DNA of 32,384 nucleotides from NCBI GenBank assembly GCA_900128395.1, contig LT649363.1, positions 1-32,384 on the forward strand. Direction: 5' to 3'. Below, one piece after another: positions 2,532-32,384 of this stretch. Position 1 is the first letter of the stretch. Each line of letters opens with the position of its first letter. Under the pieces are notes generated by a model. The model saw only the letters and a list, made by a program, of their open reading frames with translations. It searched no databases and had not been told where the DNA came from. The translations under genes and the position numbers were made by a program. The DNA comes from Stramenopiles sp. TOSAG23-2. Its lineage: Eukaryota.

Positions 2532-4001
2532 TTATGAACCGCTAATAATTACATTACCATCTTTCATAGTCATCATTCTTTCACATTCCGCCCACAAAAA
2601 CAAGTCATATTTACCATTTTTCTGTAAAGTTCGTCCTCTAGTTTGTCGCCATACAACAGGATTATTGCTGTCAATCGCCGTTCCCATGCCTGGTTCATTT
2701 TCACTACCTTTACTTAGATTTATACCATAATAATGTCCCACGCCATTTAATTCATTGAATTGATAACCAAAAATAGTGTGATTGTTTCCAAAGTTCTGTG
2801 AAATATCAGCATTGTACAAAGTTGCTGGAGTGACACTTGTTTGACCTTCAAAACTACTCATTCCTACAGGAACATTATGGATTGCGCCTGCCTCACACTC
2901 AGATAATTCCTGCCAAATTCTAGAATCCATGTCAATTGGACTAGGATAAACAGGGTGATTGTTAATAGTAAGTTGGACGGTTTCGTCACTACTCATAGTT
3001 GCTTCACTTACAAAGTTTCCAGCAATATTATTTGCTGGAACTTGTGGAGAAGCAGCAAAATTAGGTTGAGGAGTGACTGCCGCAAATATTTTACGAACAA
3101 TTTGATTATTTAATCCCAAAACTTGGCTAGTTTCTTGTTGGGTTTTTTGACCAGCAGCAACTGTAATTGCTGGAAATGCGTTTGAAATTTTAACATTCAC
3201 ATTATCGGTATAAGTTAAACTAAGTCCTTTTGCCATTTCTGCTTGTAATTTTTCCATGACTGGCACCTCATCTGGTTGATCATCAAAATAAATTAAGTCA
3301 CAAACTAATTTCATTTTTTCTTCAACAATCTTGTTTCCAGCAACAAAATTAAATCCAGACAAAGTAGTTATACGATTACCAGCTCTATCTGGTGCGAAAT
3401 CTAGAACCACACTAAACTGACCTAACAAACCTAGTGGTAATTGTAATTGCGACATCATTGGGAACAAATCTGACAAGTAAATTCTAAATTCAGGTGTTGT
3501 TGCCGCTGTTGTACCTAGTTTAAAGGCACTATTTATTGCGAAATTACCTGTAGCAACTATATCTACACCATTTATATTTTTGTCTAAACTATATTGGCCT
3601 TGTACACCATTACTTCCGGTCTCAACCATGAAGTCTTGTATCCCACCCGTTCTAGTAGGCATCACCTGGCGTCTTTTAGATGGCACCCTGTACCATGATT
3701 TTAAACTGATATAACTATTTACATCACGGGTTTGAGCAATTACATTATTTTCATACATTAATGTAGCTGTTTCAATACAACCAGTTATTCCAGCAAATAA
3801 TGGAAGATTTCTTGAAGCATCCACTGCTGTTAAACTAATTGTAATGTAAGCATTATTGTCCAATATACCGCTTCTAGGTAGATTTAATCTACAAGTTTCA
3901 TCGGTAAATGATTGTGGTTCAACTACTCTAGTTTCAACATTTACAGACTGACCTAAATTATCCGGCTTTCCGCCAACTTTTAAAACACTAGCAATACTCA
4001 T
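2532..4001 (-). CDS. PLV major capsid protein (double jelly-roll), 489 aa
   Basis: N-terminal VETRVVEP..TCRLNLPRSGILD and LPLFAGITGCIETATL, central IYLSDLFPMM..LQLPL, KLVCDLIYFD and C-terminal LFLWAECERMMTMKDG resemble PLV MCP motifs; typical length. Confidence 0.85.
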   Translation of the reverse strand: MSIASVLKVGGKPDNLGQSVNVETRVVEPQSFTDETCRLNLPRSGILDNNAYITISLTAVDASRNLPLFAGITGCIETATLMYENNVIAQTRDVNSYISLKSWYRVPSKRRQVMPTRTGGIQDFMVETGSNGVQGQYSLDKNINGVDIVATGNFAINSAFKLGTTAATTPEFRIYLSDLFPMMSQLQLPLGLLGQFSVVLDFAPDRAGNRITTLSGFNFVAGNKIVEEKMKLVCDLIYFDDQPDEVPVMEKLQAEMAKGLSLTYTDNVNVKISNAFPAITVAAGQKTQQETSQVLGLNNQIVRKIFAAVTPQPNFAASPQVPANNIAGNFVSEATMSSDETVQLTINNHPVYPSPIDMDSRIWQELSECEAGAIHNVPVGMSSFEGQTSVTPATLYNADISQNFGNNHTIFGYQFNELNGVGHYYGINLSKGSENEPGMGTAIDSNNPVVWRQTRGRTLQKNGKYDLFLWAECERMMTMKDGNVIISGS

Positions 4002-4134: not shown

Positions 4135-4284
4135 TTATTCTACAGTAGTTGCCGAACCATTGCCGCCCAGAATTAGGACACTTCTATGTAGCATATATGT
4201 ATAAATACTGTTAGGTGAACTACCATTTAATGTAGAGCGGATACGATGAGTAAATGGACGACCACGCATATTTGCTCCATATCT
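4135..4284 (-). pseudogene. C-terminal remnant of a second MCP paralog
   Basis: Hand translation: RYGANMRGRPFTHRIRSTLNGSSPNSIYTYMLHRSVLILGGNGSATTVE*, paralleling the last beta-strands of PLV MCPs. Overlaps the 3' end of the upstream ORF in another frame. Confidence 0.65.
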
Positions 4285-5495
4285 TCAAATATCTGCTCTG
4301 CTTCTAACTCAATAAAACAAGTTAAGGGCTGTAGCAATGGGCTAAATTCAGTTTCATTATTACCCAAAACTACATTCATACCGTTTGGGAGAGGTTGTGG
4401 ACCTTGATAATCGTTTCGTAACAAGATGTAGGGTTTATTTGAAAAACCTTCTCTTACATTAAATGATTTTATTTCTACTGGACCAGTTGAATTTGGGTAT
4501 TTTTCCGTCATGTTAAACAAGTTATTACCTCTGTAACGTGGAACATTATAAAATGGTGCTGGGATGCCAGTTGTATTAATATGGTCAGCGTTATATAGTC
4601 CTAACCCAACATTATTATTAACATTGTCTATTCCAAATCGTATGGGGGTCCCTTGTGGACTGGAACTAGGTGCTGCTGCTGGTGAAAAGAGATATGGTAG
4701 TGTATTTACTATTGGAACAGCATTTGTTAATTCACAAACAATTCTATTATTAGAAATATCAAAAGATTTAACAGTAGATAAAATGCTCCATTCTATATCA
4801 CCTCCATCATCAATATTACTGTAAAGAACATTCATTCCAGTTAAAGCTTTAAAACTAGATGTATAATTAGAATAATCAGTATTCAGTGGTAAAAGCATGC
4901 CTGATGGGTCTGAGTCACCGGCAGTAGATAAATGAATTTTTTTTAAATTCTGTAAAAGCCCTGAATCAGTTACAAATACTCCTCCTTCATCTTCTAGACC
5001 AAAAACTACAAAGCATTTAGATATATCAGCCGATAAAACATCTATTTGACTATTAATTTCAGGAGGATTAGCACCAATTCCGTTGTCAAAATCAGTTGAA
5101 TAACCAATTGGATTATAAGTAGCATCATTTATAGGTATTTTACGGTTTGCTGCTTGACTACCATAACCAGGTGCTGGAAGTTGTACAGGAAGTGTATTTG
5201 TCTTACTACCATTGTTATTATTTAAATAAAATCCAACTTCTAAAACTACTTTATTATCCACGTATGGTTTCTTCACGCCATTTATCTGAGGATTTGTTCT
5301 CGTAAATTCTAAAACATCAGGACTTCCAATACCTTCGGATTCTATAGCCACACTTTGAACTGATACTTGGTCCCCGGGCTTCAAATTAAATGGTGTAATA
5401 TCACTAGTATAAATAGAATTATACTCTTCGTTTTGGGATAAAATAGTAGAATTTGCCCTATTACACTCAATTAAATACGTTTGTTGTAAATTCAT
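4227..5495 (-). CDS. PLV minor-capsid/structural protein, probably C-terminally truncated
   Basis: N-terminal YLIECNRANS...FNLKPGDQVSVQSVAIE..G.G..DVLEF resembles the start of PLV minor-capsid-like proteins; beta-rich N/G/P composition; the last ~18 aa are an out-of-frame reading of the MCP2 remnant. Confidence 0.7.
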   Translation of the reverse strand: MNLQQTYLIECNRANSTILSQNEEYNSIYTSDITPFNLKPGDQVSVQSVAIESEGIGSPDVLEFTRTNPQINGVKKPYVDNKVVLEVGFYLNNNNGSKTNTLPVQLPAPGYGSQAANRKIPINDATYNPIGYSTDFDNGIGANPPEINSQIDVLSADISKCFVVFGLEDEGGVFVTDSGLLQNLKKIHLSTAGDSDPSGMLLPLNTDYSNYTSSFKALTGMNVLYSNIDDGGDIEWSILSTVKSFDISNNRIVCELTNAVPIVNTLPYLFSPAAAPSSSPQGTPIRFGIDNVNNNVGLGLYNADHINTTGIPAPFYNVPRYRGNNLFNMTEKYPNSTGPVEIKSFNVREGFSNKPYILLRNDYQGPQPLPNGMNVVLGNNETEFSPLLQPLTCFIELEAEQIFEDMEQICVVVHLLIVSALH

Positions 5496-5537: not shown

Positions 5538-7781
5538 TTAACTAGGTTGTTTTACACCAGGAAGCGGAACGTATGTATAATCAACTACATCTCCAATGTG
5601 TTCACTGTCGCTGTTGTATATTTTATTCTTACATCCTTCTACTACATAATGTCCCTCTTCAATAAAATAATACCCTGTTTTCTTAAAATTTTTTGATTTT
5701 TCGCACTCTATTATGTCGTATGGCTTCTTCCACATTTTTATTTTTCTTATTTTGTCCTTTTGTTTTATTTTTGCTTCTTCTTTTAACAATTTTGTCATGT
5801 CAACATGTTCTTTCTTGTTGTCTTCATCTTCAATTTCTTGTTCTAATTTATCTATTTCTTCCTGTATTTCATCCTGTTTTTCACTATTCCACTCGTAGTC
5901 ATAATCTGAATCTTCATTCTGCTCAGATTCGTTATATAAATCTTGTATTTCTTGCTTTAATTGACAAATTTTTTCTAGTTTTATCTGCTTTTGTTCTTCT
6001 TTTTTTTGTAATTTTAATTGTTTTTCTTTTTCTATTTTCTCTTTTTTTTTTTCTAACTTCATGTAAGCCACTTCTATTTCATACGTGTCTTTTACATTCG
6101 GTTCTGCTAGATAAGGCGTTTCTTCTTCTTCTTCTTCTACTTCTTCTTCGCTTTTATTCTCGTTTTCGCTAGAAGCACTTGTATTAGACAATTCATCATC
6201 TTTTTGAGTTTTTAATTTCACTTCTTTTTTTTCAACAACATCATATACTAATTCACCGTCAATAATTTCGCCTTTTCGTTTTCCGCGTCTGCTGTAAATA
6301 ATATCGTTGTAAATAGTTTTAAAATCTCTCAACATTTGTTCGTCTTTAAAATTTTCTAGCCAATCGTTTGTTTCTACATTAAATGGACGCATTTTATACC
6401 TAATTTTTATGACATTAGATTTTGTTTGTGGAACTAATGCGATAAAAATAAAGTTTGGATGATAAAAATTTGGTCCGTCACGTCCTACATCAACGTCACA
6501 CCCAACTATTTCATCGTTTTCGTTGTAAATGTATTTACCACCATAATTTTTGTATATTGCTTCACGGAATTTGTTGCCACGTGTAAAACTAGTTTTTGGA
6601 GCTGGTTGTGGAACTAATCGTTGTAAGCATGCGTGCTTTACATTATATGGTTGCCGACCATTTGGTTCATCTACTTCTGTTCGTGCTCTTGTGTGTCTAG
6701 CTTCATGTGGATACGCTATATCATATATGTTAAACAAATTGCGGTATTCTTCTCGTTCAACTTCTAGCATTTCAAACTCATCATTATCAAAAGAACTAAA
6801 TTTTGCTTGTTTTGGGTCAGGAATATAAACGCCATCTTTCATTTCACCTTTTCTTCTGCCATTTTTATCGTAAATCACGTCACTGTCTTCAAGCTTATAA
6901 TATAACACCCTGCTCGTGTTGTAAAATCGTTTTTTTTTACAATTATACATACGGATATCCCATTTTAGCTTCTTTCGTAGTTCTTTTTTTGTCATAAACT
7001 TGTAAAATCGTTTATATCTTGTTAAGTGATATCCAACGACTTCACCGCTTAAATCACAAATTTTAAAACCCCTTTCGTCTCTGTTTCCCACAAACAAATT
7101 TTGGCACTTTTCATTAATTCGCACGTATTTTGTTTTTATATTGTGAACCACAATCTTCCGAATATTACAATATTTGCTGACATTAACGTTTTTTAAGTCA
7201 ATCGGTGGTTTTCGTTTTGACATTAAATCAATTTTATATACTTCCAATGAGTCTTTATACGTTTTAATATCTTGTTTCAACAAGTTCAATTTTTCTTCGT
7301 AATCGCTAGGTAATTTTTTCATGCCTGTGCTTTTCTTTTTTTCCTTCAGCATTGCTCGCCATTCGTTTGCTTTCTTTTGGTGCTTTAATGTTTTGTTGTG
7401 TGCTTTTAAATTTGAACGACTGGTTACTTTCTTATCACAAGAATAACAATAAAACGTTGGTGTGTAAATTGACATACTATTTTCGTCGCAAAATTGCTCA
7501 AGACGTAGCATCGCTTTTTCGTTTTTCCAAAAGCATCGTGTTATTTTATCGTTGGATAACTTTTTCCAACCCTTCTCATATTTGCTAGGCTCTCCCATTT
7601 TAGACGGTTCAATATACGCTTCATATTCCATGATATTTGAAGCATCGTAGTCCGTAAAGTGACAGTGAAGAAATGCATTACGCTTTAGTTCCAAATATTC
7701 GGCGGTGACTCGATCTGATGCATGTTCTGTTGATAAATTTTTCTCAGTAATTTTCCCTGACAATGTTGCTAATGATGCCAT
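5538..7781 (-). CDS. C2H2 zinc-finger protein with repeated IYxxxGxxxG motifs and an acidic coiled coil (giant-virus-like)
   Basis: FYCYSCDKKVTSRSNLKAHNKTLKH; repeats VIYDKNGRRKGEMKDG, IIYSRRGKRKGEIIDG, YIYNENDEIVG, KIYNSDSEHIGD; 747-aa intronless ORF. Confidence 0.8.
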   Translation of the reverse strand: MASLATLSGKITEKNLSTEHASDRVTAEYLELKRNAFLHCHFTDYDASNIMEYEAYIEPSKMGEPSKYEKGWKKLSNDKITRCFWKNEKAMLRLEQFCDENSMSIYTPTFYCYSCDKKVTSRSNLKAHNKTLKHQKKANEWRAMLKEKKKSTGMKKLPSDYEEKLNLLKQDIKTYKDSLEVYKIDLMSKRKPPIDLKNVNVSKYCNIRKIVVHNIKTKYVRINEKCQNLFVGNRDERGFKICDLSGEVVGYHLTRYKRFYKFMTKKELRKKLKWDIRMYNCKKKRFYNTSRVLYYKLEDSDVIYDKNGRRKGEMKDGVYIPDPKQAKFSSFDNDEFEMLEVEREEYRNLFNIYDIAYPHEARHTRARTEVDEPNGRQPYNVKHACLQRLVPQPAPKTSFTRGNKFREAIYKNYGGKYIYNENDEIVGCDVDVGRDGPNFYHPNFIFIALVPQTKSNVIKIRYKMRPFNVETNDWLENFKDEQMLRDFKTIYNDIIYSRRGKRKGEIIDGELVYDVVEKKEVKLKTQKDDELSNTSASSENENKSEEEVEEEEEETPYLAEPNVKDTYEIEVAYMKLEKKKEKIEKEKQLKLQKKEEQKQIKLEKICQLKQEIQDLYNESEQNEDSDYDYEWNSEKQDEIQEEIDKLEQEIEDEDNKKEHVDMTKLLKEEAKIKQKDKIRKIKMWKKPYDIIECEKSKNFKKTGYYFIEEGHYVVEGCKNKIYNSDSEHIGDVVDYTYVPLPGVKQPS

Positions 7782-8112: not shown

Positions 8113-8589
8113 ATGAAAAAATTAACTCCAGAAGTTGTTGAACGTCTATTAGCATTGGCTAATATATTAACACCAGAAGTAGTAGAAAAACTACTACAAG
8201 ATAGAGTAGCAGAAAAGCCTACAAAAAAATCCTATATGGCAAAACTAGCAAAAAAAACAATTTGTTATAAGAAGTTTGTAGATGAAATCAAGTTACCAGA
8301 TAATCCTATGGAATCATTATATGATGAAAAACAAGTTGATTTTTATTCGTATGTCATATTAAATTATATAAAAAAATATAAATATATTCCCATCTTTTGT
8401 AGTGCTATAAAAAACAATAAAATGTATAAAATATATAATGGAACAACATGGGAAGAAAAAGAAGATTTAAACGATATTATTGATAAAATATGTAAACTAC
8501 TTTTAGTTAAAGGATTTCAACAATGGGAAAAAAAGAATCCTGATTTCCAAAAAAATCAAAAAAAAAACGATAAATTTAAGGATATATAG
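8113..8589 (+). CDS. Protein resembling the C-terminal domain of giant-virus MIGE-type proteins
   Basis: IPIFCSAIKNNKMYKIYNGTTWEE...QQWEKKNPDF parallels the RPIHCSD..RE.LY.KD..WEK...W...NPD motif; duplicated LTPEVVExLL at the N-terminus. Confidence 0.55.
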   Translation: MKKLTPEVVERLLALANILTPEVVEKLLQDRVAEKPTKKSYMAKLAKKTICYKKFVDEIKLPDNPMESLYDEKQVDFYSYVILNYIKKYKYIPIFCSAIKNNKMYKIYNGTTWEEKEDLNDIIDKICKLLLVKGFQQWEKKNPDFQKNQKKNDKFKDI

Positions 8590-11850: not shown

Positions 11851-12199
11851 ATTTATAATGATGGTTAAAATCTAAGTTATAATATTTTTACACTTCTCGT
11901 GTTAAAGTAATATGCTCAATACTCAATCGCAAGAATAATATGTTATCCTACTGTAGTAAAGCTCTAATGCACCTCTGCAAACAAGCACAAGTAGGTTTCT
12001 ATCCTTCCGTGCGCAATCGTTGAACGCGCTTAATATATATATATTTATAAATGATGGTTAAAATCTATAAGTTATAAAGTAATTTTACACTTCTCATGTT
12101 AAGTAATATGCTCAATACTCAATCGCAAGAATAATATACTAATACTCTACAAGCACAAGTAGGTTTCTATCCTTCCAACATGTTCGAACGTTGAACGCG
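11851..12199 (+). repeat. Diverged tandem duplication (~180/155 bp)
   Basis: ATGATGGTTAAAATCTA, GTAATATGCTCAATACTCAATCGCAAGAATAATAT and ACAAGCACAAGTAGGTTTCTATCCTTCC each occur twice in the same order. Confidence 0.9.
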
Positions 12200-13077
12200 T
12201 TGGACGTCGGGTTCACTCGATAGCGGTGAGGCTGTCAAAGTGAAAGATCCTGTTGTGAACAACAACCGGTAACTATCCGGATAAAGATCTTGAAGTGCAC
12301 GGTTGTGGCAAAAAGCCACGGTTTTGATCACTTTAGCTTGTAGATCTCTACATGTTTCATTGACCCATTGTGCTTTAAGCCAGTCCGATTTTCTTTTCGT
12401 AGCCGAATAAAATATATCTATTTTTATAATCTTCTATTTTAGCTATGTATCAATATGATATTTTGATATATATAAATATATAACATGATATTAATATGTA
12501 TCATATGCATTTAAGCTCCGGGACCAGCTAATCTAGGATCGTTTACTTTCCTTAATGGGGGGCCTATGGCACAATTACTCAAGTAATAATTTAAGCGCCT
12601 TTGGCAAATTGCTTTAATTCCTTTCACTATCCCATTCATGTTGGTACCAACTCTGAATTTTTCTCTGGAAAATGTTTCTAGCTCTACTAACGAAGGCGGC
12701 GAAGCTCTGAAAACACTTGTTGTTCCACGTGTTATTGCTGGCTTTTTTACCAAATGGTGTTCCATATATTTATTTACAACACGAACTATTTTGGCATGTT
12801 GTTGTGACAACGATAATGCCGAAGAAGCCGAAGACGATGATGGTGACAGGATATCGTGTTTATTGTTCTCGTTGTTGTTCTTGTCATGATTATTATTATT
12901 TACATAAATATGATTTTCACTAAATAAAATGTCTTTTAACTCCCCGTTTAGCAATTGATGTTTTAAATATATTTCTAATGATTCCCCTATTTGTTGATTA
13001 TTCGCATACGAACATTGTAAGGACGTTCCTATTATTATTATCGTTGCGAAACAGTTCCAATAAAGTAGTTTCGTCAT
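12167..13077 (-). CDS. Putative secreted protein of unknown function, probably two exons (13077-~12547 and ~12433-12167)
   Basis: Signal-peptide-like N-terminus; AT-rich gap at ~12434-12510; an ATG-less 88-codon open frame (..YSATKRKSDWLKAQWVNETCRDLQ..) ends at TAG 12167. Splice sites uncertain. Confidence 0.5.
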
Positions 13078-15143: not shown

Positions 15144-15818
15144 ATGGAAGCAATATACAACTCATTAGCAAATATTGCAATAGCATTATTAAAAGAAAGA
15201 AAAAATAATAATAACGAGAAGAATCAAATATTTATTGGGATTGCAGGTGGTCCAGGTAGTGGTAAAACAACTACTGCTGCTCAAGTATGTAAATTATTAA
15301 ATAGGAAACACATAAAATCCATTGTACTGCCTATGGATGGTTATCATTTTTATAAAAAAGAATTAGATTTAATGGAAAATCCTGAAGAAGCCCATCAATT
15401 TCGTGGAGCACCATTTACATTCAATTCTAAACGTTTTATTAAAGATATGGTAAATGCAAAAAGCACAGGTACTGGCAATTTTCCAGATTTTGATCATGCA
15501 GCTGGTGATCCAAACGAGGGTCAAATTAAATTAGACACATCTGTAGAAGTAGTCTTCGTCGAAGGAAATTATGTCTTGTTAAAGCAAGATCCTTGGTGTG
15601 AACTTTCAAATAATATTTTTGATTTATGTTGGTTCATTAAATGTCCAGAGGAAGAAGCACAAAAACGTGTTGTTTTAAGACATATGAAGGCATGGAATTT
15701 TACCGAAGAACTAGCTTTGGCAAGATGGTTAGATAACGATTTGAAAAATTATCGCTTTATAAATAATAATTCTATCAGCAAAATGGATAAGATAATTGAA
15801 TCTGTTTCTCATGTCTAG
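15144..15818 (+). CDS. P-loop kinase, YFH7/YggC-like (phosphoribulokinase/uridine kinase/pantothenate kinase superfamily)
   Basis: GIAGGPGSGKTT, LPMDGYH, RGAPFTF, PDFDHAAGDP, VFVEGNY. Confidence 0.92.
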   Translation: MEAIYNSLANIAIALLKERKNNNNEKNQIFIGIAGGPGSGKTTTAAQVCKLLNRKHIKSIVLPMDGYHFYKKELDLMENPEEAHQFRGAPFTFNSKRFIKDMVNAKSTGTGNFPDFDHAAGDPNEGQIKLDTSVEVVFVEGNYVLLKQDPWCELSNNIFDLCWFIKCPEEEAQKRVVLRHMKAWNFTEELALARWLDNDLKNYRFINNNSISKMDKIIESVSHV

Positions 15819-18028: not shown

Positions 18029-20488
18029 ATGGCATCAAAAACTTCTGAAGAAAGTAAATACGATGCATATGATGATGTGTCCGATGCTGAAGAAGAGCAA
18101 CAAAATGAAATAGTGGTAGTAGCACCTCCACCAAGAAGAAAAGGTGGAAGAAGTGGAGGAAGATCAATTTTACCACCAAGTGGTAAAAAACCAAATAATT
18201 CCAGCGCTAGAAGTCGGGCACGAATGCAGCATGTAAAACCACCACCTAAAGGTAAACGTGGCCCAGGAGTCAGTGCAAGGGCACAATATCGCCGTATGGC
18301 AATGGAAAAGGCCCAAGCAAATAATAAAAACGACGATGTTCGTGAAGGCAAAGTTAGGGACATTTCAGATAGTGAAGATGAACACAGTGAAGAAAATAAT
18401 GATGGTTTTTCATCAAAAGTTGCCGATAAAGGCGATAGATTCAATAGCAATAGCGGTTACTATAATAATAATAGTAATAATAATAATAATAATAAAGGAA
18501 ACGACATTCTGGACCTGTCTGATGATGCTGAAGATTCAGACGAGGATATGTATGAACATTTTTCAATGCAAAATAACAAGGATGATCATCGAAAACCACG
18601 GCAAGAAAAGGCAAAGAAACCAATACAATCTGGATTTTTTGACGATGATTCAGATGATGATCAATTTGATTTGCCAGATATTACAGAAGGGAGTCATGAT
18701 TTAGACATTGAGGCATTTCAAGATGAATTTGGAGTGTCTGGTTGGGCTGAAAAGAAGCCAAAAAGCCACTATAGTAGAAACCGAATTAATAAAAAGAAAA
18801 CAGAAGGTTATCCTAAAAGGAGTGTAAAAGCTGGTCAACGAGTATCAAGAAACAATGAAAGGGAAATTGGAAGGAAAAAAAGAAACAATAAAACGGATGA
18901 CCATCTTAAGGAAGATCGGGAAGTGGGTGATCAATATGCAACAGCTGGAAGCAAAAGTTGCGATATTGAAGTGGTGGAAGATAATGCTAGGTTGCCATTT
19001 TTAAGAGTCGGGGATACTGTTGATGCGAAAGCAAAGGGTTGGATACGATATTACAGTGGTGCTGTTAAGAAGGTGCGTAATGATGGCAGTATAGACGTAC
19101 ATTTTGATGATGGTGAATTGCACCAACGTCTACCGCGTATCCACGTGAAATTAATTAAACGAAGAGAACGTGTTGGCTTTAGCAATGCAAGAGATCATGA
19201 TGAACAAAAGGTCAAAAGAATACAAACGAATATGAACGCGCAGAAGGTGGATAAAGTGGGCGATGATTATGATAGCGAAATGTGCATAGATGAAAATATA
19301 TCAATACAAAATTCCGGGACTTCACGATCAAATAGTGAAATGACTGAAAGATCTTCGCCAAAACGTGCTGGAAGAAATGAGGATACTAAGAAGAAGACCA
19401 GAAATGAAATGTTACACGTGGAAGAGGAAGGCGATGAGTATAATAAATCACACGATTGTGGGACGGGGTTAGATTCAGGGTCGCAATCACCAAAAGGTTC
19501 ATCTACAGAACCAAAAGGCGTAAAAAGACAAGAAATGACTCCGTACAATGAAGCCCTAGTGCCAACCCGAAGAGCCGATTTGGCAAAGTTTTTAATTCTT
19601 CCACCTTATAAAGGTGTCAATAAGACCATACGTTGTTACATCAAAAGGCATAACAAAGGCCTCAATGCTCTGAATCCAATTTATACTTTTCATTTAGAAA
19701 AAGCTGGCGCCAAGGGCAAACATGCTTCAAGGCAATTGATGGTTGCTCAAAAAATATTGCAATCCAGCTCATGTAACTTTTTGATTTCTTTAGATCGTGA
19801 TGATATGGGTAAATCATACAACAACCGTAGTAAATTTTACCTGGGAAAGCTACAAGCAAAAAAAGGTACAGATGAGTTTGTGCTATATGATCGTGGTATG
19901 AATCCAAGCGATTTAGTAGACTTGGTAAAATCAACTACATTTGAAATGAAGGAAAGTGCTGCAAGGCGAGAGATGGCATCGATCGTTTACGATAGGTCGA
20001 AAGATGTGATAAAATCACGTAGGATGGAAGTTACACTGCCAGCCGTGGTTAGAGATGATGGGAAAACAGTAACTGAGGCACAATTTAGGCCATTCACTGA
20101 TGAAGATAGTATGTACAAAAAATTTAAAGAAATAAGAGAAAATGGCACCCAAAATGTTGAAGCAAATGAGCGCTTGTTATGTTTACATAATCGTATGTTT
20201 AGTGCTGGGCGCACTGCACTATTGAGTGAGTATAGTGGAAGAGCAAATGAAACGTCTGTAAAAAATTTTCAACTGTGTGTCTCACAACCACGTAAGCGTG
20301 ATCATATGGAGAAATTTCATGAATCAAAACTAGGGCAAGCAGAAAAAGATGAGCCGGAACGTGTCATGTTACAATTGGGTCGTGATGCAGATGAATTTAA
20401 TGTTGATTTTACTTATCCGATGTCATTTTTTGCTGCTTTTGGTATTTGCCTTAGCCGTTTTGTCACGAAACAAAAGGAAGATTTTTAA
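18029..20488 (+). CDS. Tubby-like protein with a central Tudor-like domain
   Basis: IRCYIKR, YLGKL, SVKNFQL, LQLGR..DEFNVDFTYPMSFFAAFGICLSRF; LRVGDTVDAK..GWIRYYSGAVKKVRNDGSIDVHFDDGE; first ATG at 18029. Confidence 0.92.
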   Translation: MASKTSEESKYDAYDDVSDAEEEQQNEIVVVAPPPRRKGGRSGGRSILPPSGKKPNNSSARSRARMQHVKPPPKGKRGPGVSARAQYRRMAMEKAQANNKNDDVREGKVRDISDSEDEHSEENNDGFSSKVADKGDRFNSNSGYYNNNSNNNNNNKGNDILDLSDDAEDSDEDMYEHFSMQNNKDDHRKPRQEKAKKPIQSGFFDDDSDDDQFDLPDITEGSHDLDIEAFQDEFGVSGWAEKKPKSHYSRNRINKKKTEGYPKRSVKAGQRVSRNNEREIGRKKRNNKTDDHLKEDREVGDQYATAGSKSCDIEVVEDNARLPFLRVGDTVDAKAKGWIRYYSGAVKKVRNDGSIDVHFDDGELHQRLPRIHVKLIKRRERVGFSNARDHDEQKVKRIQTNMNAQKVDKVGDDYDSEMCIDENISIQNSGTSRSNSEMTERSSPKRAGRNEDTKKKTRNEMLHVEEEGDEYNKSHDCGTGLDSGSQSPKGSSTEPKGVKRQEMTPYNEALVPTRRADLAKFLILPPYKGVNKTIRCYIKRHNKGLNALNPIYTFHLEKAGAKGKHASRQLMVAQKILQSSSCNFLISLDRDDMGKSYNNRSKFYLGKLQAKKGTDEFVLYDRGMNPSDLVDLVKSTTFEMKESAARREMASIVYDRSKDVIKSRRMEVTLPAVVRDDGKTVTEAQFRPFTDEDSMYKKFKEIRENGTQNVEANERLLCLHNRMFSAGRTALLSEYSGRANETSVKNFQLCVSQPRKRDHMEKFHESKLGQAEKDEPERVMLQLGRDADEFNVDFTYPMSFFAAFGICLSRFVTKQKEDF

Positions 20489-22149: not shown

Positions 22150-22261
22150 TTTTAATTATCATACTCGTTAGAACCGTGCGCTATTTTTTTTTATATTGAG
22201 TGGATAATTTTTTTAATTACTCGTTAGAACCATGCGCTATTTTTTTTATATTGTGGATAAT
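22150..22261 (+). repeat. ~56-bp tandem duplication over the USP stop codon
   Basis: TACTCGTTAGAACCRTGCGCTATTTTT at 22162 and 22218. Confidence 0.9.
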
Positions 22262-24540
22262 ATCATATGTTTTGCTTCATATGCCTTTTGTAATTTCTTC
22301 CCGATACCAACGCTTCCATCATAATTATTTTTGTTTTTCACTTTTTTCGTCTTACCTTGATCATAATTGGAATCCCATTCATCTGGCCGCCGTTTCTTTG
22401 CCCAGTCTTTCTCTGCTCTTACTTGAAAGTTTTGAAGAGACTTTTGCAGCCTTTTCAGTGGATTTATGTGATTGTCATTATTTGGCAATGGCATTTTATC
22501 AGAATTTTCATTATAATTATTATTATTATTGTTCACAATATTAAAATCCCAGCCTTCACTATTTACTCCATTTTTATTTAAAGTGTAATGACGTGTACTT
22601 TTTCTTAATTTCAGCATTTCTTTCCAATCATTTATAGAATTGTTTATATTTATTTTACCATTATTGTAATCATGAAATTGTATAGTTTCATTTCCTTGTC
22701 GAAATTTAACAGTACGTATATTCTGATTGTTGCTGGTGATTTTAGACATTTTCTTATTGTCATGATAATCAACAACTGGGACAGTTCCTGTTGTTATAGG
22801 TTTATCATCGTCGTCTTCGGATCTTCTTTCAACTATGTACATTTCACTTTTATGAATTGAGTTACCACCAACATATGCCTTTGATCCATGTAATGCTCTG
22901 GTATTCATTATAAATCTGCGTAAAACTGGTGTGCCAACTTGACCTTTCATGATTGAATGAATACTTGCATTATATGTTCTTCTTTTCAACTGATTTTTTA
23001 CACTCTTTATTTCTTCCTTGTTTACTATATTCTTCTTATTTATTTTTTCCCTATTGTTAAAAATTGACAATGCTGGTGGAGCCAGTGGTGGTTGTGGGAA
23101 ACTAGGTCCAATCATATTATTGTTGCTATTAGTATTTTGATGCTTGGTATTGTTCCATACATCCTCTAAATTTGTTACTTTTTCACCAACATCAAAACTA
23201 TTATTGTCAACACAGTTGCTGCTTGGGCTTGCCACATCGTTTTTGTTCTTTAAAACCATTTTATTATTACGTTGTTTCAATGATAATGTTTTAGTCTGTA
23301 TTTTTTTCTCTACACGTACCACTCGCTTTTGATAGAATAATATGTATGCCTGTTGGTTCAATGCTCGTTTGATACCTATCTGCTGCACTGAACTATCATT
23401 CATTTCGTACCATGCACCATTCGATGCTTTTATAAAGCTATAATAATGGCCTGAGCTGGCATAATTCCCAGCATGAACCAATACACCATATAGATCATAC
23501 ATAAAGTTTTCTTCACCATCTTTATTGTTTGTAAATGATTTCATATTCAATTCTTTTGGATATTCAACACGCTTTGATATTTTATCCCCATATGGTGAAA
23601 ATCGTTTTAGGTGTATTACTAATACTAATGGCATACGGCGAAATTTAAATTGCTTCGTTGCTGGTACCAATTTTTTGCAATTGTCACAGCGCCAACGATT
23701 ATCATGGTCTAGTACTTCTAACTTTGTATGTTGTTTTAATGCTTTTTCCAACGTGTGACTTTTGCCATAAATTTCTAAGGATATATCCAAACATGCATCA
23801 TATGTTGTGGAAGCAAATTTGCATATTTTACATTTCACTTGACTTTGCAAATATCCACCAAAAATGCGATGGATAGAAGTTGTTTCAGCCTTTCGAGAGT
23901 TATCATTTGGGCGCATACCCATCGCTTTTAAAGACGCTTTTTGCATAGCATCTATGAACGTCCTTAAAAATTCATGCGCATCCTCTTGTCTGCCCATTCT
24001 AAAATTTCTTGATATTTTCTGAAGTTTTTGTACAATAGGTTTCGGTGAAAACGCGCGATTGCTTTTCGCGCTTAACGCTTTGTTGATATGCTGTTCCATC
24101 AAGCAATACATGTCATTGCCATGCTTTGACTTATTAGTATGATATTTTATACTTGCAAGTTGTGCTAATGGCGCTGTGTATGTTAAACATTGCAACACAC
24201 TATTTAAAAAGCAGGTGTTGCCTAAATTATATAACCCGCCACCAGCTCTTGATATATTTTTCCAGTGTGCTTTTGATGCAACAAATTTATATTCGCATAT
24301 AGGAATTTTGTGACCTGGAAAGCTTAAATCATCGTCATCGTTGTTCATACTATTGGCATTGTTAATATTGATGGAGTTATTATTACCACCATTTACAAAC
24401 GAACGATCTAAATAATAACTACTGACCGATGGATTCATAGCATTGATACGCTTTTTTGCCAACACAAATTTAATTGGCCGTGGTATAATTTCCCTTTCCA
24501 CTCGTTTCAATCGTTTCAAATATTCATTCGTTGCTTCCAT
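22246..24540 (-). CDS. USP36: Ubiquitin-specific protease, USP36/USP42 family
   Basis: Cys box GLYNLGNTCFLNSVLQCL, GRQEDAHEF, His box HAG....GHY, WYEMNDS; C-terminal DEWDSNYDQGKTKKVK typical of USP36-like proteins. Confidence 0.9.
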   Translation of the reverse strand: MEATNEYLKRLKRVEREIIPRPIKFVLAKKRINAMNPSVSSYYLDRSFVNGGNNNSININNANSMNNDDDDLSFPGHKIPICEYKFVASKAHWKNISRAGGGLYNLGNTCFLNSVLQCLTYTAPLAQLASIKYHTNKSKHGNDMYCLMEQHINKALSAKSNRAFSPKPIVQKLQKISRNFRMGRQEDAHEFLRTFIDAMQKASLKAMGMRPNDNSRKAETTSIHRIFGGYLQSQVKCKICKFASTTYDACLDISLEIYGKSHTLEKALKQHTKLEVLDHDNRWRCDNCKKLVPATKQFKFRRMPLVLVIHLKRFSPYGDKISKRVEYPKELNMKSFTNNKDGEENFMYDLYGVLVHAGNYASSGHYYSFIKASNGAWYEMNDSSVQQIGIKRALNQQAYILFYQKRVVRVEKKIQTKTLSLKQRNNKMVLKNKNDVASPSSNCVDNNSFDVGEKVTNLEDVWNNTKHQNTNSNNNMIGPSFPQPPLAPPALSIFNNREKINKKNIVNKEEIKSVKNQLKRRTYNASIHSIMKGQVGTPVLRRFIMNTRALHGSKAYVGGNSIHKSEMYIVERRSEDDDDKPITTGTVPVVDYHDNKKMSKITSNNQNIRTVKFRQGNETIQFHDYNNGKININNSINDWKEMLKLRKSTRHYTLNKNGVNSEGWDFNIVNNNNNNYNENSDKMPLPNNDNHINPLKRLQKSLQNFQVRAEKDWAKKRRPDEWDSNYDQGKTKKVKNKNNYDGSVGIGKKLQKAYEAKHMILSTI

Positions 24541-26087: not shown

Positions 26088-27254
26088 ATCACGTTATCTT
26101 TTTAATGCATAAATGATATATGTAATATAGAACGATATAACTAACAATGTTTTTCATATTTGCTACATAATATGCAATTAAACAAAAATGTGTGTGTGTG
26201 TGTGTGTGTGTGTGTTTATCGTTCGTAATGGTTAGACCTTTCATACATAACAGATCAAGTCATAGCAATGGGTTTTCCAAGTGAAGGTGTAGAAAAAACA
26301 TACCGTAATCCAATGTCAACTGTACAACGTTTCTTCAATACACGGCATAAAGATAAATACATGATATACAACGTGTGCTCAGAAAAACATTATTCCGGGG
26401 AGAAGTTTAATGGTGCGTGCGAACATAGTTTCGTATGGGATGATCATAATCCACCGCCAATGAAATTGATCGAACCTATGGTAGAACATATGGTGAACTT
26501 TCTAAGCAAAGGTAGTGATTATATTGTTGCAGTCCACTGCAAAGCTGGCAAAGGTAGAACAGGTACCATTATTGCTTGTTTGTTAATGCGTTTGGGTTTG
26601 GTAAATAATCCAAATGCAGCATTGCAAATGTTTGGCGAAAAGCGAACAAAGGATGGGAAAGGTGTTACAATACCGAGTCAAATGCGATATGTGCATTACT
26701 ATGGGCAAAGACTCGCAAATGGCCAATGGAAGCCACCACGAAAATTTCGTATAAAAACTATACGTTTTTTTACAACACCAAATTTCGATGGATGGGCTGA
26801 AGGTGGCGGTTGTGATCCATATTTCCATATAAAAATACGAAATGAAGAAGGTAAAATGATTAAAATTTTTGATTGGAGCAAAGTCAATACAGTTAAGCAT
26901 TTTAAACTCAAAACAACTCAAATTACTTTGGATTGCACAAAACACCCTCCACCAATATTGGAAGGTGATATTAAATTTGTATTCTATGATTACGATAAAT
27001 TAAGTTCGGATGATAAAATGTTTCATTTGTGGGTGAATACAGCATATATTGAACACACATATTTACGTTTTAGTAAGCCTGTGATTGATAAAGCGTGCAA
27101 AGATAAATCTTGTCAATACTTTGATGATAATTTTGAGATAGAATTTATATTAGAGTTAGATACAAGTGAGGAAGATGTCAAATATCAAGACTTAGGGGGG
27201 TATGATAAAGATATTGATGTGAATACAGACGAGGAGGAAGGCCCAGATCAATAA
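25982..27254 (+). CDS. PTEN: PTEN lipid phosphatase; exons 25982-26048 and 26236-27254
   Basis: Exon 1 MSLLRQKVSKKKKRFQEDGFDL; 187-bp phase-1 GTAAGT...TTAG intron; DLSYITDQVIAMGFP, DHNPP, catalytic HCKAGKGRTG, GVTIPSQMRYV, C2 domain MFHLWVNT. Confidence 0.97.
26189..26215. repeat. (TG)n microsatellite in the PTEN intron
   Basis: TG run ending 20 bp before the acceptor. Confidence 0.95.
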
Positions 27255-27793: not shown

Positions 27794-29707
27794 TTAAACC
27801 TTTTTGAAACCATCTTTTTCCATTGTCAATATTTGTTTGAAAAAATCATTATTTTTATTTGTGTGGCTAATCGCAATAATAGTTACATCTTTCTTCTTTA
27901 GCAATGCATATAACGGTTCAACAGATTCCCCATTGATAGCAGCTGTTGCTTCATCAAGGTATGCCACTTTTGGGTTGTGAAATAGTAAACGTGCCCATAT
28001 TACGCGCTGTTTTTGCCCACCACTTAACACCATTTGCCAGTCTTCCACCTCGTCTAACTTATAACGAGTCAATAATCCATTTAATTCAACTGCTGATATC
28101 AAACTACGTATATGTTCATCTTGGTTTTGCACATTGATTTTTGGGTATGTGATTTGATCTCTTAAAGACATTTGAGGCATGAAATAAGGTCGTTGTGGTA
28201 GAAACTGAACATCATTTTTTGTGTTTACTGCCCCAGAACCCGTTTTCCACAATCCTGCAATTGTTCTATACAAACTAGTTTTACCAATACCATTTATTCC
28301 TTGTATCAACGTATGTTGTCCTTTTCCAACTTCTAACGATAGATTATTAGCAATACAATCACCGTTTTTAGGTGCCTGGATGCTTAAATTCTCCAACTGT
28401 AACACTAAACTATCCTTTAATTCGCCGCTTGCAATTGGTCCAACCACATTTGCTATGTTTTTAGCGTCCTCCTCAAATTTATCAAATAAATCTCGTAATC
28501 TTTCTGCAAAGCCTAAAAGTTCATTGTAGCATGTAATTGAATCTGTTAAATCTTTCACTGCATTTGCTAATGCACCAAGCAATGAACTTTGAGATAAATA
28601 TTCAGATGTTATTTGCTGTCCACTCTTATTAGTCGTATCCATGTATACGCTTGGTATCAGCATGGAAAATGCACACATCGCACCACCGTATTTCAATACA
28701 TACGTATTCAATAAATTAACAACCGCAAAACTTTCTGCCATATTCATTCTATGATTGATGGCATGACGAAATTTTTGTTTAGCAACAATACTTTCTGATT
28801 GAATAGCACCAGTTGTAAACATAATTTCTTCTCGATAATCATGCACTACGCCATGGTGCTCCAATAAGTGTGCCTCGCGCCTTTGAAATTCACTTGTATA
28901 CCAGCGCAAGCTATTTGGCAACCCTTTTCTTACCGCTTCTAACGTAACTTTGGATAAATAAAAGAAACCAAAAAAACCAAGCAATGGATATGGGCCAATT
29001 TGAGTTGACAAATCATATGATAAATATCCTATATCAATAACTGGTTTTACAACATGTCCAAAATGATGGACAAGCTCATCGCTGAATTTTTTGACATCTG
29101 TTGTTAGCCTTGATGCAGTATCGACCAGATTGTTATTGTACATGGACAAAGCATTTTTATCGAAATATTTTGAATGAAAATGCCCATACACAATTTCACG
29201 TACTTGCACACCAACTAATTTCTCCAAATATGACATACTTTGTGTCCATGTTGTTGCAAGCATGCACCATAAACCAAAACGCACTTGATTCATAAACATT
29301 TTATCGAATTCCTTCGATGAAAAGTAACCACCCATTTCCCCAGCTAATTTAGCAAGTATTGTGGTGATACGAATTCGACCAACTAAGGCAACTAAGTAAA
29401 CAAGCACAGTAGCGCCAAATTTTCCATATAAGGATGGGTATATCATATTTAAAAAGGGTGCTAATACATGCGATTTTTGTTCCTTGTTTGAGGTTTTCTT
29501 CATTTTTGTCCTTGCTTTTGTCCCACGTCCTTTCTTTGTCTGTTCTTTATAAGTCTTTTGCCATAATAGTAGAGGAGATGGAGCACCAATTGCAGTCCAT
29601 CCAAGGAAACTAGTCCATACGCCTATTAATAAACGGCCACGCTTAGTCGACCAGACTACACTTGAAAAGTGATATATTAAATCTGATATTGTTTTTCTTG
29701 TTGACAT
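27794..29707 (-). CDS. Peroxisomal ABC half-transporter, subfamily D
   Basis: TM domain with RLTTDV, KPVIDI, EAA-like EEIMFTTG, LKYG; Walker A GINGIGKTS, FLPQRPY, LSGGQKQR, Walker B AYLDEAT, ISH. Confidence 0.95.
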   Translation of the reverse strand: MSTRKTISDLIYHFSSVVWSTKRGRLLIGVWTSFLGWTAIGAPSPLLLWQKTYKEQTKKGRGTKARTKMKKTSNKEQKSHVLAPFLNMIYPSLYGKFGATVLVYLVALVGRIRITTILAKLAGEMGGYFSSKEFDKMFMNQVRFGLWCMLATTWTQSMSYLEKLVGVQVREIVYGHFHSKYFDKNALSMYNNNLVDTASRLTTDVKKFSDELVHHFGHVVKPVIDIGYLSYDLSTQIGPYPLLGFFGFFYLSKVTLEAVRKGLPNSLRWYTSEFQRREAHLLEHHGVVHDYREEIMFTTGAIQSESIVAKQKFRHAINHRMNMAESFAVVNLLNTYVLKYGGAMCAFSMLIPSVYMDTTNKSGQQITSEYLSQSSLLGALANAVKDLTDSITCYNELLGFAERLRDLFDKFEEDAKNIANVVGPIASGELKDSLVLQLENLSIQAPKNGDCIANNLSLEVGKGQHTLIQGINGIGKTSLYRTIAGLWKTGSGAVNTKNDVQFLPQRPYFMPQMSLRDQITYPKINVQNQDEHIRSLISAVELNGLLTRYKLDEVEDWQMVLSGGQKQRVIWARLLFHNPKVAYLDEATAAINGESVEPLYALLKKKDVTIIAISHTNKNNDFFKQILTMEKDGFKKV

Positions 29708-30240: not shown

Positions 30241-30601
30241 TAATTAAAAATAATTGAAATAATTAATAATAATAATAAAAAAATATACTACTCGTCGTGC
30301 ACTCGTCGATAATATTATTACAAGTCTTGTATTATATTATGAAATTTCTTACCTGTTACTCTCCAAAACATGATACGAATAAATAATACTTTAAGTGAGC
30401 CAACATTAAAATATGATATACTATCATATGCATAGAACACACAAAAGCTTTATATACAATCGTATACATAATATAAAAGAAGCGTATGCTCGAGTCTTCG
30501 CACGTATGCGTTAATACATCACATATATATATATATCAATATATTGTGTTGCACCCATCATCACATTTGATACTTGCATCATAAAGTATAATTCGTATTT
30601 T

Positions 30602-31951
30602 TTATAAATAAAACAATTTATAACACAAGCCGTTTGACTCTGAGGATTTAATTAAATCGATAACCATGAAACATCCATCATTTTTGCTTGGAAGAATCGT
30701 TGTATCTAGAAGTTTTGGCAGTGAAGTGCCAAATCCTAGGTTCGCTACAAAGTGCCCAATTATAGATGGTGCTTTTTGCCTATGTGTTAGATAGTTTAAT
30801 AAATACTTTTCAATGCTTTGGATAGATACATTATCACATTTATCTTCATTCAATATAGTTAATTTCTCGATACAATATGTCGTCCTGGATTTGGTCTTAT
30901 CATCATCGTTATGATTATTATTATTATTACTATTATAGATATAACCATGTAAAAACCCCATGATTGGTATCATATGTTTAATATTTTCATTTTTGTCATA
31001 AGTTTTGCCATGCTCACGGTTGATAGCGTCTATTTTTTTCTTATTTAAAAAATCTATAAAATGATGTTCTACTATATTATCAATGTTATATCTCCATTTA
31101 CGTACTACATCGTTGTCCAGAAATAATTTAAATGCAGTAAAAGAGTTTTGTTTAATTTTTATATTGGCATTATCATCATCTGTTACAAATACACCAACAC
31201 TATAATGAAGCAATTTTTTAGTAAATCCTTCATCCCTAGTATTACCGATGTTTTTATTGTGTATTATCAATGTTGTGTTCTTTTTTACGTTATTATTATT
31301 CTTATTGTCGCTACGTAAAATAGCGGTATTGTTTTCCATTTTTTTCTTTTTTCCATCATCACCTTGGTAGTAATTATTATTAACATTGCTAATGTTACTA
31401 TTATTATCAGGACTAATAACGTAATAATCCTTATCTATGATTGTTGATGAAACCAAATTTTTAAGTCGAATTAATATCATAGGATTTATTGCCCTGCATG
31501 AATCAATACTATACGGTGGAAACACTTGTGCTGCATCTGCCAATATAGATATTACCCCATTTTCCTTATTCAAAACTGGCCCCAATTGACGATTACTTAA
31601 TGACTCAACCAATACCTCTTGCATTCTAATAATTTCGATTGAAAAATTTCGTCCCTGGTTTTTATTATTCTTTGTCACTGGGTTTTTGATATTTTCACTA
31701 TTTTGTATAATATTTATATTTTTTCGTTTTTGCAAAACATGTAACTTTTCTATAGCATGTAAATATACAATGGATGCGTTACAACTATCAACATAACTAC
31801 CCAGGCCATTTCTTTTACTTGCCATTATCAACATGATATATTTTCCAAGCCTATCTACAAGATATAATAGCCCAATCTTATATTTGTTTATATTTGTTGA
31901 TTTTAGTTGTACTTTTACAATATCACCTACGGCATCTTCTAAATTGAACAT
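30602..31951 (-). CDS. GEMIN6: Gemin6-like protein fused to a degenerate MPN/JAMM domain
   Basis: Sm-like VGDIVKVQL..YKIGLLYLVD..YIMLI..IVYLHAIEKL; Gemin6-like C-domain VFPPYSIDSCRAINPMILIRLKNLV; MPN-like IMGFLHG..IIGHFVANLGFG..LD..FMVIDLIKS..YKLFYL. Start could be 31951 or 31969. Confidence 0.7.
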   Translation of the reverse strand: MFNLEDAVGDIVKVQLKSTNINKYKIGLLYLVDRLGKYIMLIMASKRNGLGSYVDSCNASIVYLHAIEKLHVLQKRKNINIIQNSENIKNPVTKNNKNQGRNFSIEIIRMQEVLVESLSNRQLGPVLNKENGVISILADAAQVFPPYSIDSCRAINPMILIRLKNLVSSTIIDKDYYVISPDNNSNISNVNNNYYQGDDGKKKKMENNTAILRSDNKNNNNVKKNTTLIIHNKNIGNTRDEGFTKKLLHYSVGVFVTDDDNANIKIKQNSFTAFKLFLDNDVVRKWRYNIDNIVEHHFIDFLNKKKIDAINREHGKTYDKNENIKHMIPIMGFLHGYIYNSNNNNNHNDDDKTKSRTTYCIEKLTILNEDKCDNVSIQSIEKYLLNYLTHRQKAPSIIGHFVANLGFGTSLPKLLDTTILPSKNDGCFMVIDLIKSSESNGLCYKLFYL

Positions 31952-32384
31952 AGCTGCCAATATCAACATATATAATATGATGCAAAATTACCTATCTTGG
32001 GTATTTCAAATATCTAATATTAACAACCGATGTTGTTGCTTATATATTTTCAATTTCATAAATAGAATGCCAGTATTAATAATAGAAGTAGAGTAAGAGT
32101 AATTATTATTATTTGAAGAAGAAAATAATAATAGTCGTCTAATAGATCTAATATTATATATATAATAGTGCAATCCAGCAATAAAAAATAATACAAGTAT
32201 TGTTGAGTTATTTTTATATTTATTATTTATTTAATTTATGCACTTATTATTCTAATAGAAAATAATAACAAAAAAAAATCTCCATACGTGCATACCAGGT
32301 ACTATAGTTTTAAAAAGCTGTCGAACTACCTTGTTATACGTGTTAATTTAATGCTAAGCCCATGGTAGGAACATGCCTCGAAAC

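Follow-up and report, generated by a model that had tools for sequence, protein, structure and literature searches.

EDC3/LSm16 joins an Sm domain, through a low-complexity linker, to a catalytically inactive YjeF_N domain, and MPN-minus pseudo-enzymes are represented by the C-terminal MPN domain of Prp8 and by Rpn8, CSN6 and eIF3f/h. Within the SMN complex, Gemin6, Gemin7 and Gemin8 form a module that is on record from animals and fission yeast, and its function was called unknown in 2018 (PMC10470402, PMC6385987). Here we describe a Gemin6-like gene in a 32,384-nt stretch of DNA from Stramenopiles sp. TOSAG23-2 (contig LT649363.1, positions 1 to 32,384; hereafter the window), the minus strand of which carries, between 30602 and 31969, a single open reading frame (ORF) of 455 amino acids plus stop, with two conserved modules and a poorly conserved Asn-rich linker between them. 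The reading that we favour, with some confidence, is that one gene encodes a two-module protein in which a divergent Gemin6-type unit is tethered to a second, lineage-restricted conserved domain. No description of a Gemin6 fusion was found in the literature searched (Gemin6 with MPN, Gemin7/8 evolution, LSm12 and protists, supplements excluded).

One reading frame with two conserved modules

The ORF (30602..31969, minus strand, 455 codons, stop codon at 30602-30604) lies in DNA of ~29-32% GC, within an AT-rich window that varies between ~22 and 46% GC per kb and has a eukaryotic gene content. Its start is probably M7, the second in-frame ATG (31951), since all orthologs begin (MLNLE..) at the position aligned to this residue. 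That the frame is open beyond chance follows from mononucleotide shuffling, in which all 20000 randomized versions of the 89-codon linker acquired a stop, as did all 20000 of the whole ORF; the remaining two frames of the same strand contain 40 and 77 stops.

Along this frame, the Gemin6-like module, supported by hhalign and phmmer against the Gemin6 protein P0008, occupies residues 7-180 (31430..31951, minus strand), where an Sm-like part precedes one of Gemin6_C/AD type. It is followed by the Asn-rich variable linker at residues 181-269 (31163..31429, minus strand) and by the conserved C-terminal domain of ~185 aa at residues 270-455 (30605..31162, minus strand). The linker, which a preliminary description of this DNA had already placed within the same ORF, consists of 22% Asn, compared with 11% in each flanking module, and shows only 10-27% identity between sequence groups (40-71 alignable positions) together with large differences in length. 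The N-terminal module is 35-51% identical between the same groups, and the C-terminal domain, at 36-50%, is comparably conserved.

A phmmer search over 1.84 billion representative proteins returned six matches at E<=0.001, namely P0003-P0006, which are members or fragments of the family, and, outside it, the repetitive protein P0007 and the stand-alone P0008, the latter being the only one of these two that we accept as genuine. Combined with three word-index searches (protein lengths of 200-797 aa) and a cluster look-up, it yielded full-length relatives that possess both modules: P0002 (99% identical), P0004, P0009, P0010, P0012 (365-367 aa) and P0011 (417 aa). The word-index searches reached only this same small family, shorter stand-alone C-terminal domains lying outside the lengths searched. 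The sequences form three groups, each of which has both modules, and among the sequences found, the C-terminal module is restricted to a small group of marine microbial eukaryotes.

A metagenome scan added two contigs, L001 (98.7% nucleotide identity) and L002, which is part of a 61.5-kb contig. L002 encodes an uninterrupted 454-codon ortholog (41-47% identical), followed by an ortholog of the ABCD transporter (4921-6846 of L002, plus strand, adjoining the 41%-identical Gemin6-like ortholog), so that gene order and orientation match those of the window. Both modules are thus conserved within a single ORF, and so are their fusion and its synteny; a search of related protists for the fusion had been put forward as a check in the preliminary description.

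In a related species, the frame of P0015, an exact suffix of P0012, starts at residue 150 on an 8065-nt contig and extends unbroken across the linker as far as the C-terminus, with the first 57 residues in a separate ORF of that contig (P0013), and a 1785-nt contig contains the entire 365-aa frame; such a pair is the pattern that would be expected of an intron in the 5' part and of a spliced mRNA encoding both modules. Several gene-caller products from related species (P0005, P0026 and P0020) depart from the reference frame, either where the Sm-like part gives way to Gemin6_C or within the linker, which hints at short introns at the points of departure in the species concerned, while the genes of the window and of L002 are intron-free.

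Gemin6 affinity of the N-terminal module

The affinity of the N-terminal part to Gemin6 became apparent by comparison with P0008, a stand-alone protein of 165 aa that we treat as a true Gemin6 because it lies above both curated Pfam cut-offs (Gemin6 Sm-like, 29.4 versus 23.9 bits; Gemin6_C, 63.8 versus 33.4 bits). Alignment of the family profile A3 with P0008 by hhalign gave a probability of 96.2% over 133 columns (residues 29-176) and covered both parts of P0008, and phmmer reached the same protein from P0001 at E 6.4e-4; the similarity to a bona fide Gemin6 is significant over both domains. The PPY..C..N..IL.R stretch, located at residues 149-176 (31442..31525, minus strand) in the region matched by Pfam Gemin6_C, has PPY at residues 151-153, followed by C158, N162, IL165-166 and R168, and among orthologs P152, Y153, C158, A160, I161, N162, P163, L166, R168 and L169 are invariant. 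The Gemin6-like reading of the first ~170 aa in the preliminary description is supported, and the motif quoted there is present at residues 151-168.

By analogy with the Gemin6 family, we infer that this divergent Gemin6-type unit (~residues 7-180), predicted to consist of an Sm-like barrel and then a Gemin6_C/AD-type domain, would serve as an Sm-like subunit of an SMN-type complex for small nuclear ribonucleoprotein (snRNP) assembly, where it would be paired with an Sm-fold partner. The Asn-rich linker would act as a flexible, fast-evolving tether to the second module of ~185 aa.

Several observations weigh against this reading. Six of the 8 family sequences match Gemin6_C (PF20417) in the expected region, all of them below threshold (13.1-19.5 bits, E 0.0008-0.08), the window ORF reaching E 0.013 and 15.7 bits under the 33.4-bit cut-off. 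No match to this family was obtained in P0006, which is a fragment, or in P0010, for which the AD model of LSm12 type (E 0.0036) is the better one. The Gemin6 Sm-like family (PF06372) is absent at E<=10 from all 8 family sequences scanned, and sequence searches of the PDB with P0001, the family profile A3, A1 and P0008 gave chance-level rows only, the solved Gemin6 chains being missed even from P0008. In addition, the codon changes between L001 and the window comprise 8 synonymous and 8 non-synonymous ones, which indicates only modest constraint at short range, and the protein-binding role assigned to the C-terminal domain below is purely conjectural. As to structure, the single-sequence full-length AlphaFold2 model is of too low confidence (mean predicted local distance difference test, pLDDT, 30.7) to speak for or against an Sm fold, and the ESM Atlas gave no usable match for P0001 or P0004.

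The C-terminal domain and alternative explanations

E301, E368, D422 and D438 are among the residues that never vary in the C-terminal domain, and none of these invariant positions is a His or a Cys. Because a conserved metal-binding His/Cys set is thus missing, the domain is most likely a non-catalytic module for protein binding, which would add a partner or a surface to the Gemin6 unit. In the preliminary description this segment had been read as an Rpn11/CSN5-like MPN domain, in which GHFVANLGFG at residues 405-414 (30728..30757, minus strand) was taken to correspond to the HxH stretch of JAMM, with the zinc-binding histidines lost. The motif lies at the residues indicated, and across orthologs it reads IG[HY]F[VA]A[NST][NLI]GFGT[SA], with G405, F407, A409, G412, F413, G414 and T415 invariant and no conserved His. 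The JAMM zinc site is formed by Glu, HxH, Ser and Asp; the candidate Glu varies among orthologs (E, M or T), and judging from these residues an active JAMM site is excluded whatever the fold.

A degenerate, zinc-less MPN (JAB1/MPN/Mov34) fold, which would make it a pseudo-deubiquitinase scaffold fused to Gemin6, appears unlikely to us, although a number of features resemble such a fold. Under permissive settings, the best hhalign path against the JAB alignment is collinear over 120 columns: IPIMGFLHG is set opposite the JAB E-x-x-G-x-L-x-G strand, IIGHFVANLGFG opposite IVGWYHSHPGFG, and FMVIDL opposite the V-I-D-P strand. One ortholog group has Glu in the first position (IPIEGF), both D422 and D438 are invariant, and the spacing of the elements appears close to that of Rpn11-type domains. 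However, no Pfam family of any kind, the JAB/MPN clan included, matched the C-terminal half at E<=10, whether the 8 family sequences or 3 slices of this half were scanned, and no match was found by sequence and profile searches of the PDB. In hmmsearch with filters off (--max), a JAB profile of 110 sequences gave the family -0.6 to -1.6 bits, less than it gave to random pieces from the six frames of the window. The hhalign score against JAB was 10.4-10.7 (probability 0.14%), compared with 10.9 for the N-terminal control, and was reached by 69-70 of 100 column shuffles. The JAB reference used here was assembled from 123 ORFs with the JAMM motif from prokaryotic genomes, of which 110 domain slices were aligned, and 9 of 9 sampled members exceeded the Pfam JAB cut-off; being prokaryotic and selected by a single motif, it is poorly suited to recognising a pseudo-MPN from a eukaryote. 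The collinear resemblance to JAB is real as a pattern and is statistically not separable from noise; the MPN assignment itself, with scores at or below those of shuffled controls, gained no support from these searches.

Structure prediction, which the preliminary description had put forward as a check on each half, could be carried out and spoke neither for nor against an MPN fold: with a 6-row alignment, AlphaFold2 gave a low-confidence model of the C-terminal domain (mean pLDDT 40.8, predicted template modelling score 0.32). Since the AlphaFold2 models are too poor, the fold searches with Foldseek and VIA-align carry no weight. None of the 4 family members compared with NCBIfam matched any family there, and among the 1.84 billion representatives the C-terminal domain matches only the small family and P0007. 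The latter, a protein of 404 aa with ~45-aa repeats, matched residues 299-345 (30935-31075) at E 1.4e-5 in 7 stretches, which we judged to be a spurious, repeat-driven match. An origin of the C-terminal module as a duplicate of the N-terminal module was likewise rejected, as hhalign gave a probability of 0.2% and the two are unrelated. Separately, a phage-type JAB protein of 137 aa was observed at 12030-12443 (minus strand) of L003, on a 210-kb viral contig, as the sole match to the JAMM motif pattern on a viral contig; at 19.7 bits it is sub-threshold for Pfam JAB.

A bolder possibility, which we regard as slightly less probable still than the degenerate MPN fold, is that the C-terminal domain represents a new fold, or a pseudo-MPN beyond recognition, that became attached to Gemin6 in one marine protist clade, where it replaces or recruits partners that in other eukaryotes are separate subunits of the Gemin7/Gemin8 type. 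If true, this would reveal an snRNP-assembly architecture unseen so far outside animals and fungi, and if the extra domain were indeed a pseudo-MPN, snRNP assembly would be linked to a type of scaffold that is already present in the spliceosome in the form of Prp8.

The N-terminal module, for its part, might be LSm12, which combines an Sm with an AD domain and is a partner of ataxin-2, and the protein would in that case be unrelated to snRNP assembly. We consider this quite improbable. The Pfam AD family (PF09793) matches 4 of the 8 family sequences, all of them weakly and below the 23.4-bit cut-off (E 0.0036-0.15, 12.5-17.7 bits), and the preference of P0010 for the AD model points in the same direction. 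Against this, Gemin6_C outscores AD in 5 of the 6 sequences that match Gemin6_C, P0005 being a near tie (0.010 and 0.014), and the phmmer search over the representatives returned one Gemin6 (P0008) and zero LSm12. The absence of LSm12 is of note because LSm12 is the more widespread family of the two. We retain LSm12 as a minor rival since Gemin6 and LSm12 have been mistaken for each other before, as in the case of Drosophila Hezron (PMC6385987).

With the favoured two-module protein in mind, transcript data bear on whether both halves are expressed together. Parts of the stretch are contained in 24 public runs, of which every labelled one is marine/seawater and 17 are recorded as RNA. We compared the RNA contigs of four marine RNA runs from two studies (X4, X5, X6 and X8), which cover pieces within 30313-31295 and 31538-31949 and hence both modules and sequence past the stop codon; none of them covers or bridges 31296-31537, and no joint falls on the gene. 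A single transcript in this species, for which the preliminary description had put forward RNA-seq as a check, is thus neither shown nor contradicted. The RNA-covered sequence beyond the stop (30313..30601, minus strand; X6 contig 30343-30832 across the stop, X8 contig 30313-30530) is possibly a 3' untranslated region, which is a hint only since contigs cannot define transcript ends. An artefact, in which two neighbouring genes were read as one ORF or the assembly is chimeric, would fit the missing RNA bridge and is extremely improbable in view of the unbroken frame common to the window, L001, L002 and independent protein records of three sequence groups, of P0003 (149 aa, 97% identical), which crosses the linker over residues 120-267, and of the linker frame that no shuffle left free of stops.

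Genomic setting and comparison with known systems

Directly downstream of the Gemin6-like gene, at 27794-29707 on the minus strand, lies the gene for an ABCD-type (peroxisomal-type) half transporter with ABC_membrane_2 and ABC_tran domains, which by eye has diverged far less than the Gemin6-like gene itself. Further along the window are genes for a PTEN-like phosphatase with a C2 domain (26268-27254), a USP/UCH hydrolase (22246-24540) and a Tubby-family protein (18029-20488). Three long minus-strand ORFs of 489, 422 and 747 aa (2532-4001, 4227-5495 and 5538-7781) match no Pfam family at E<=0.001 and may be lineage-specific genes. Between 8000 and 17500 only shorter ORFs (150-230 aa) were observed, including a partial MA3-domain match at 8113-8589 and a PRK/uridine-kinase-like ORF at 15144-15818; the genes of this region probably contain introns, in contrast to the single-exon genes near the Gemin6-like ORF.

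Upstream of the gene, L001 (positions 1-273) loses its similarity to the window beyond 32251, in AT-rich intergenic DNA (window 32251-32384). An upstream exon at 32251, beside the splice-acceptor-like sequence ttctattag, was considered and rejected, as the upstream part of L001 resembles diverged AT-rich intergenic DNA; the divergence resembles an indel or rearrangement between strains more than it does splicing. Contigs of X5 (1153 nt) and X6 (1032 nt) match only 32310/32312-32384 of the window and continue with ~1 kb unlike it, a break that may reflect a splice junction of the upstream neighbour or a structural difference between strains.

Taken together, the protein is, as far as sequence comparison goes, a lineage-specific variant of a Gemin6-type protein that arose by lineage-restricted domain accretion and whose function is a prediction. 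A Gemin6-type protein permanently tethered to a second conserved domain in an unrelated lineage of marine protists would reveal with what Gemin6 must be in physical contact, and it would offer a handle on the composition of the SMN complex outside opisthokonts.

Among known systems, Gemin6 has the same order of parts as the N-terminal module, with an Sm-like part (PF06372) and then a C-terminal part (PF20417) that bears the PPY..C..N..IL.R signature. Known Gemin6 proteins are, however, small and stand-alone, as is P0008, whereas a linker and a conserved domain of ~185 aa are added here and the family's own Pfam scores remain below the cut-offs. LSm12 shares the general Sm plus AD-type architecture and the weak AD matches noted above, but Gemin6_C usually scores higher and the global phmmer search returned no LSm12; LSm12 proteins are also not known to have a C-terminal domain of this kind. 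The MPN-minus pseudo-enzymes offer a collinear resemblance of motifs and a comparable lack of zinc ligands, although the similarity is without statistical support. EDC3/LSm16 is alike in that an Sm-type module is followed by a disordered linker and by a second globular domain without evident catalysis; it differs in having no sequence relation to the present protein, in which YjeF_N and FDF Pfam families are absent at E<=10 and the Sm part is of the Gemin6 type and joined to an AD-like part.
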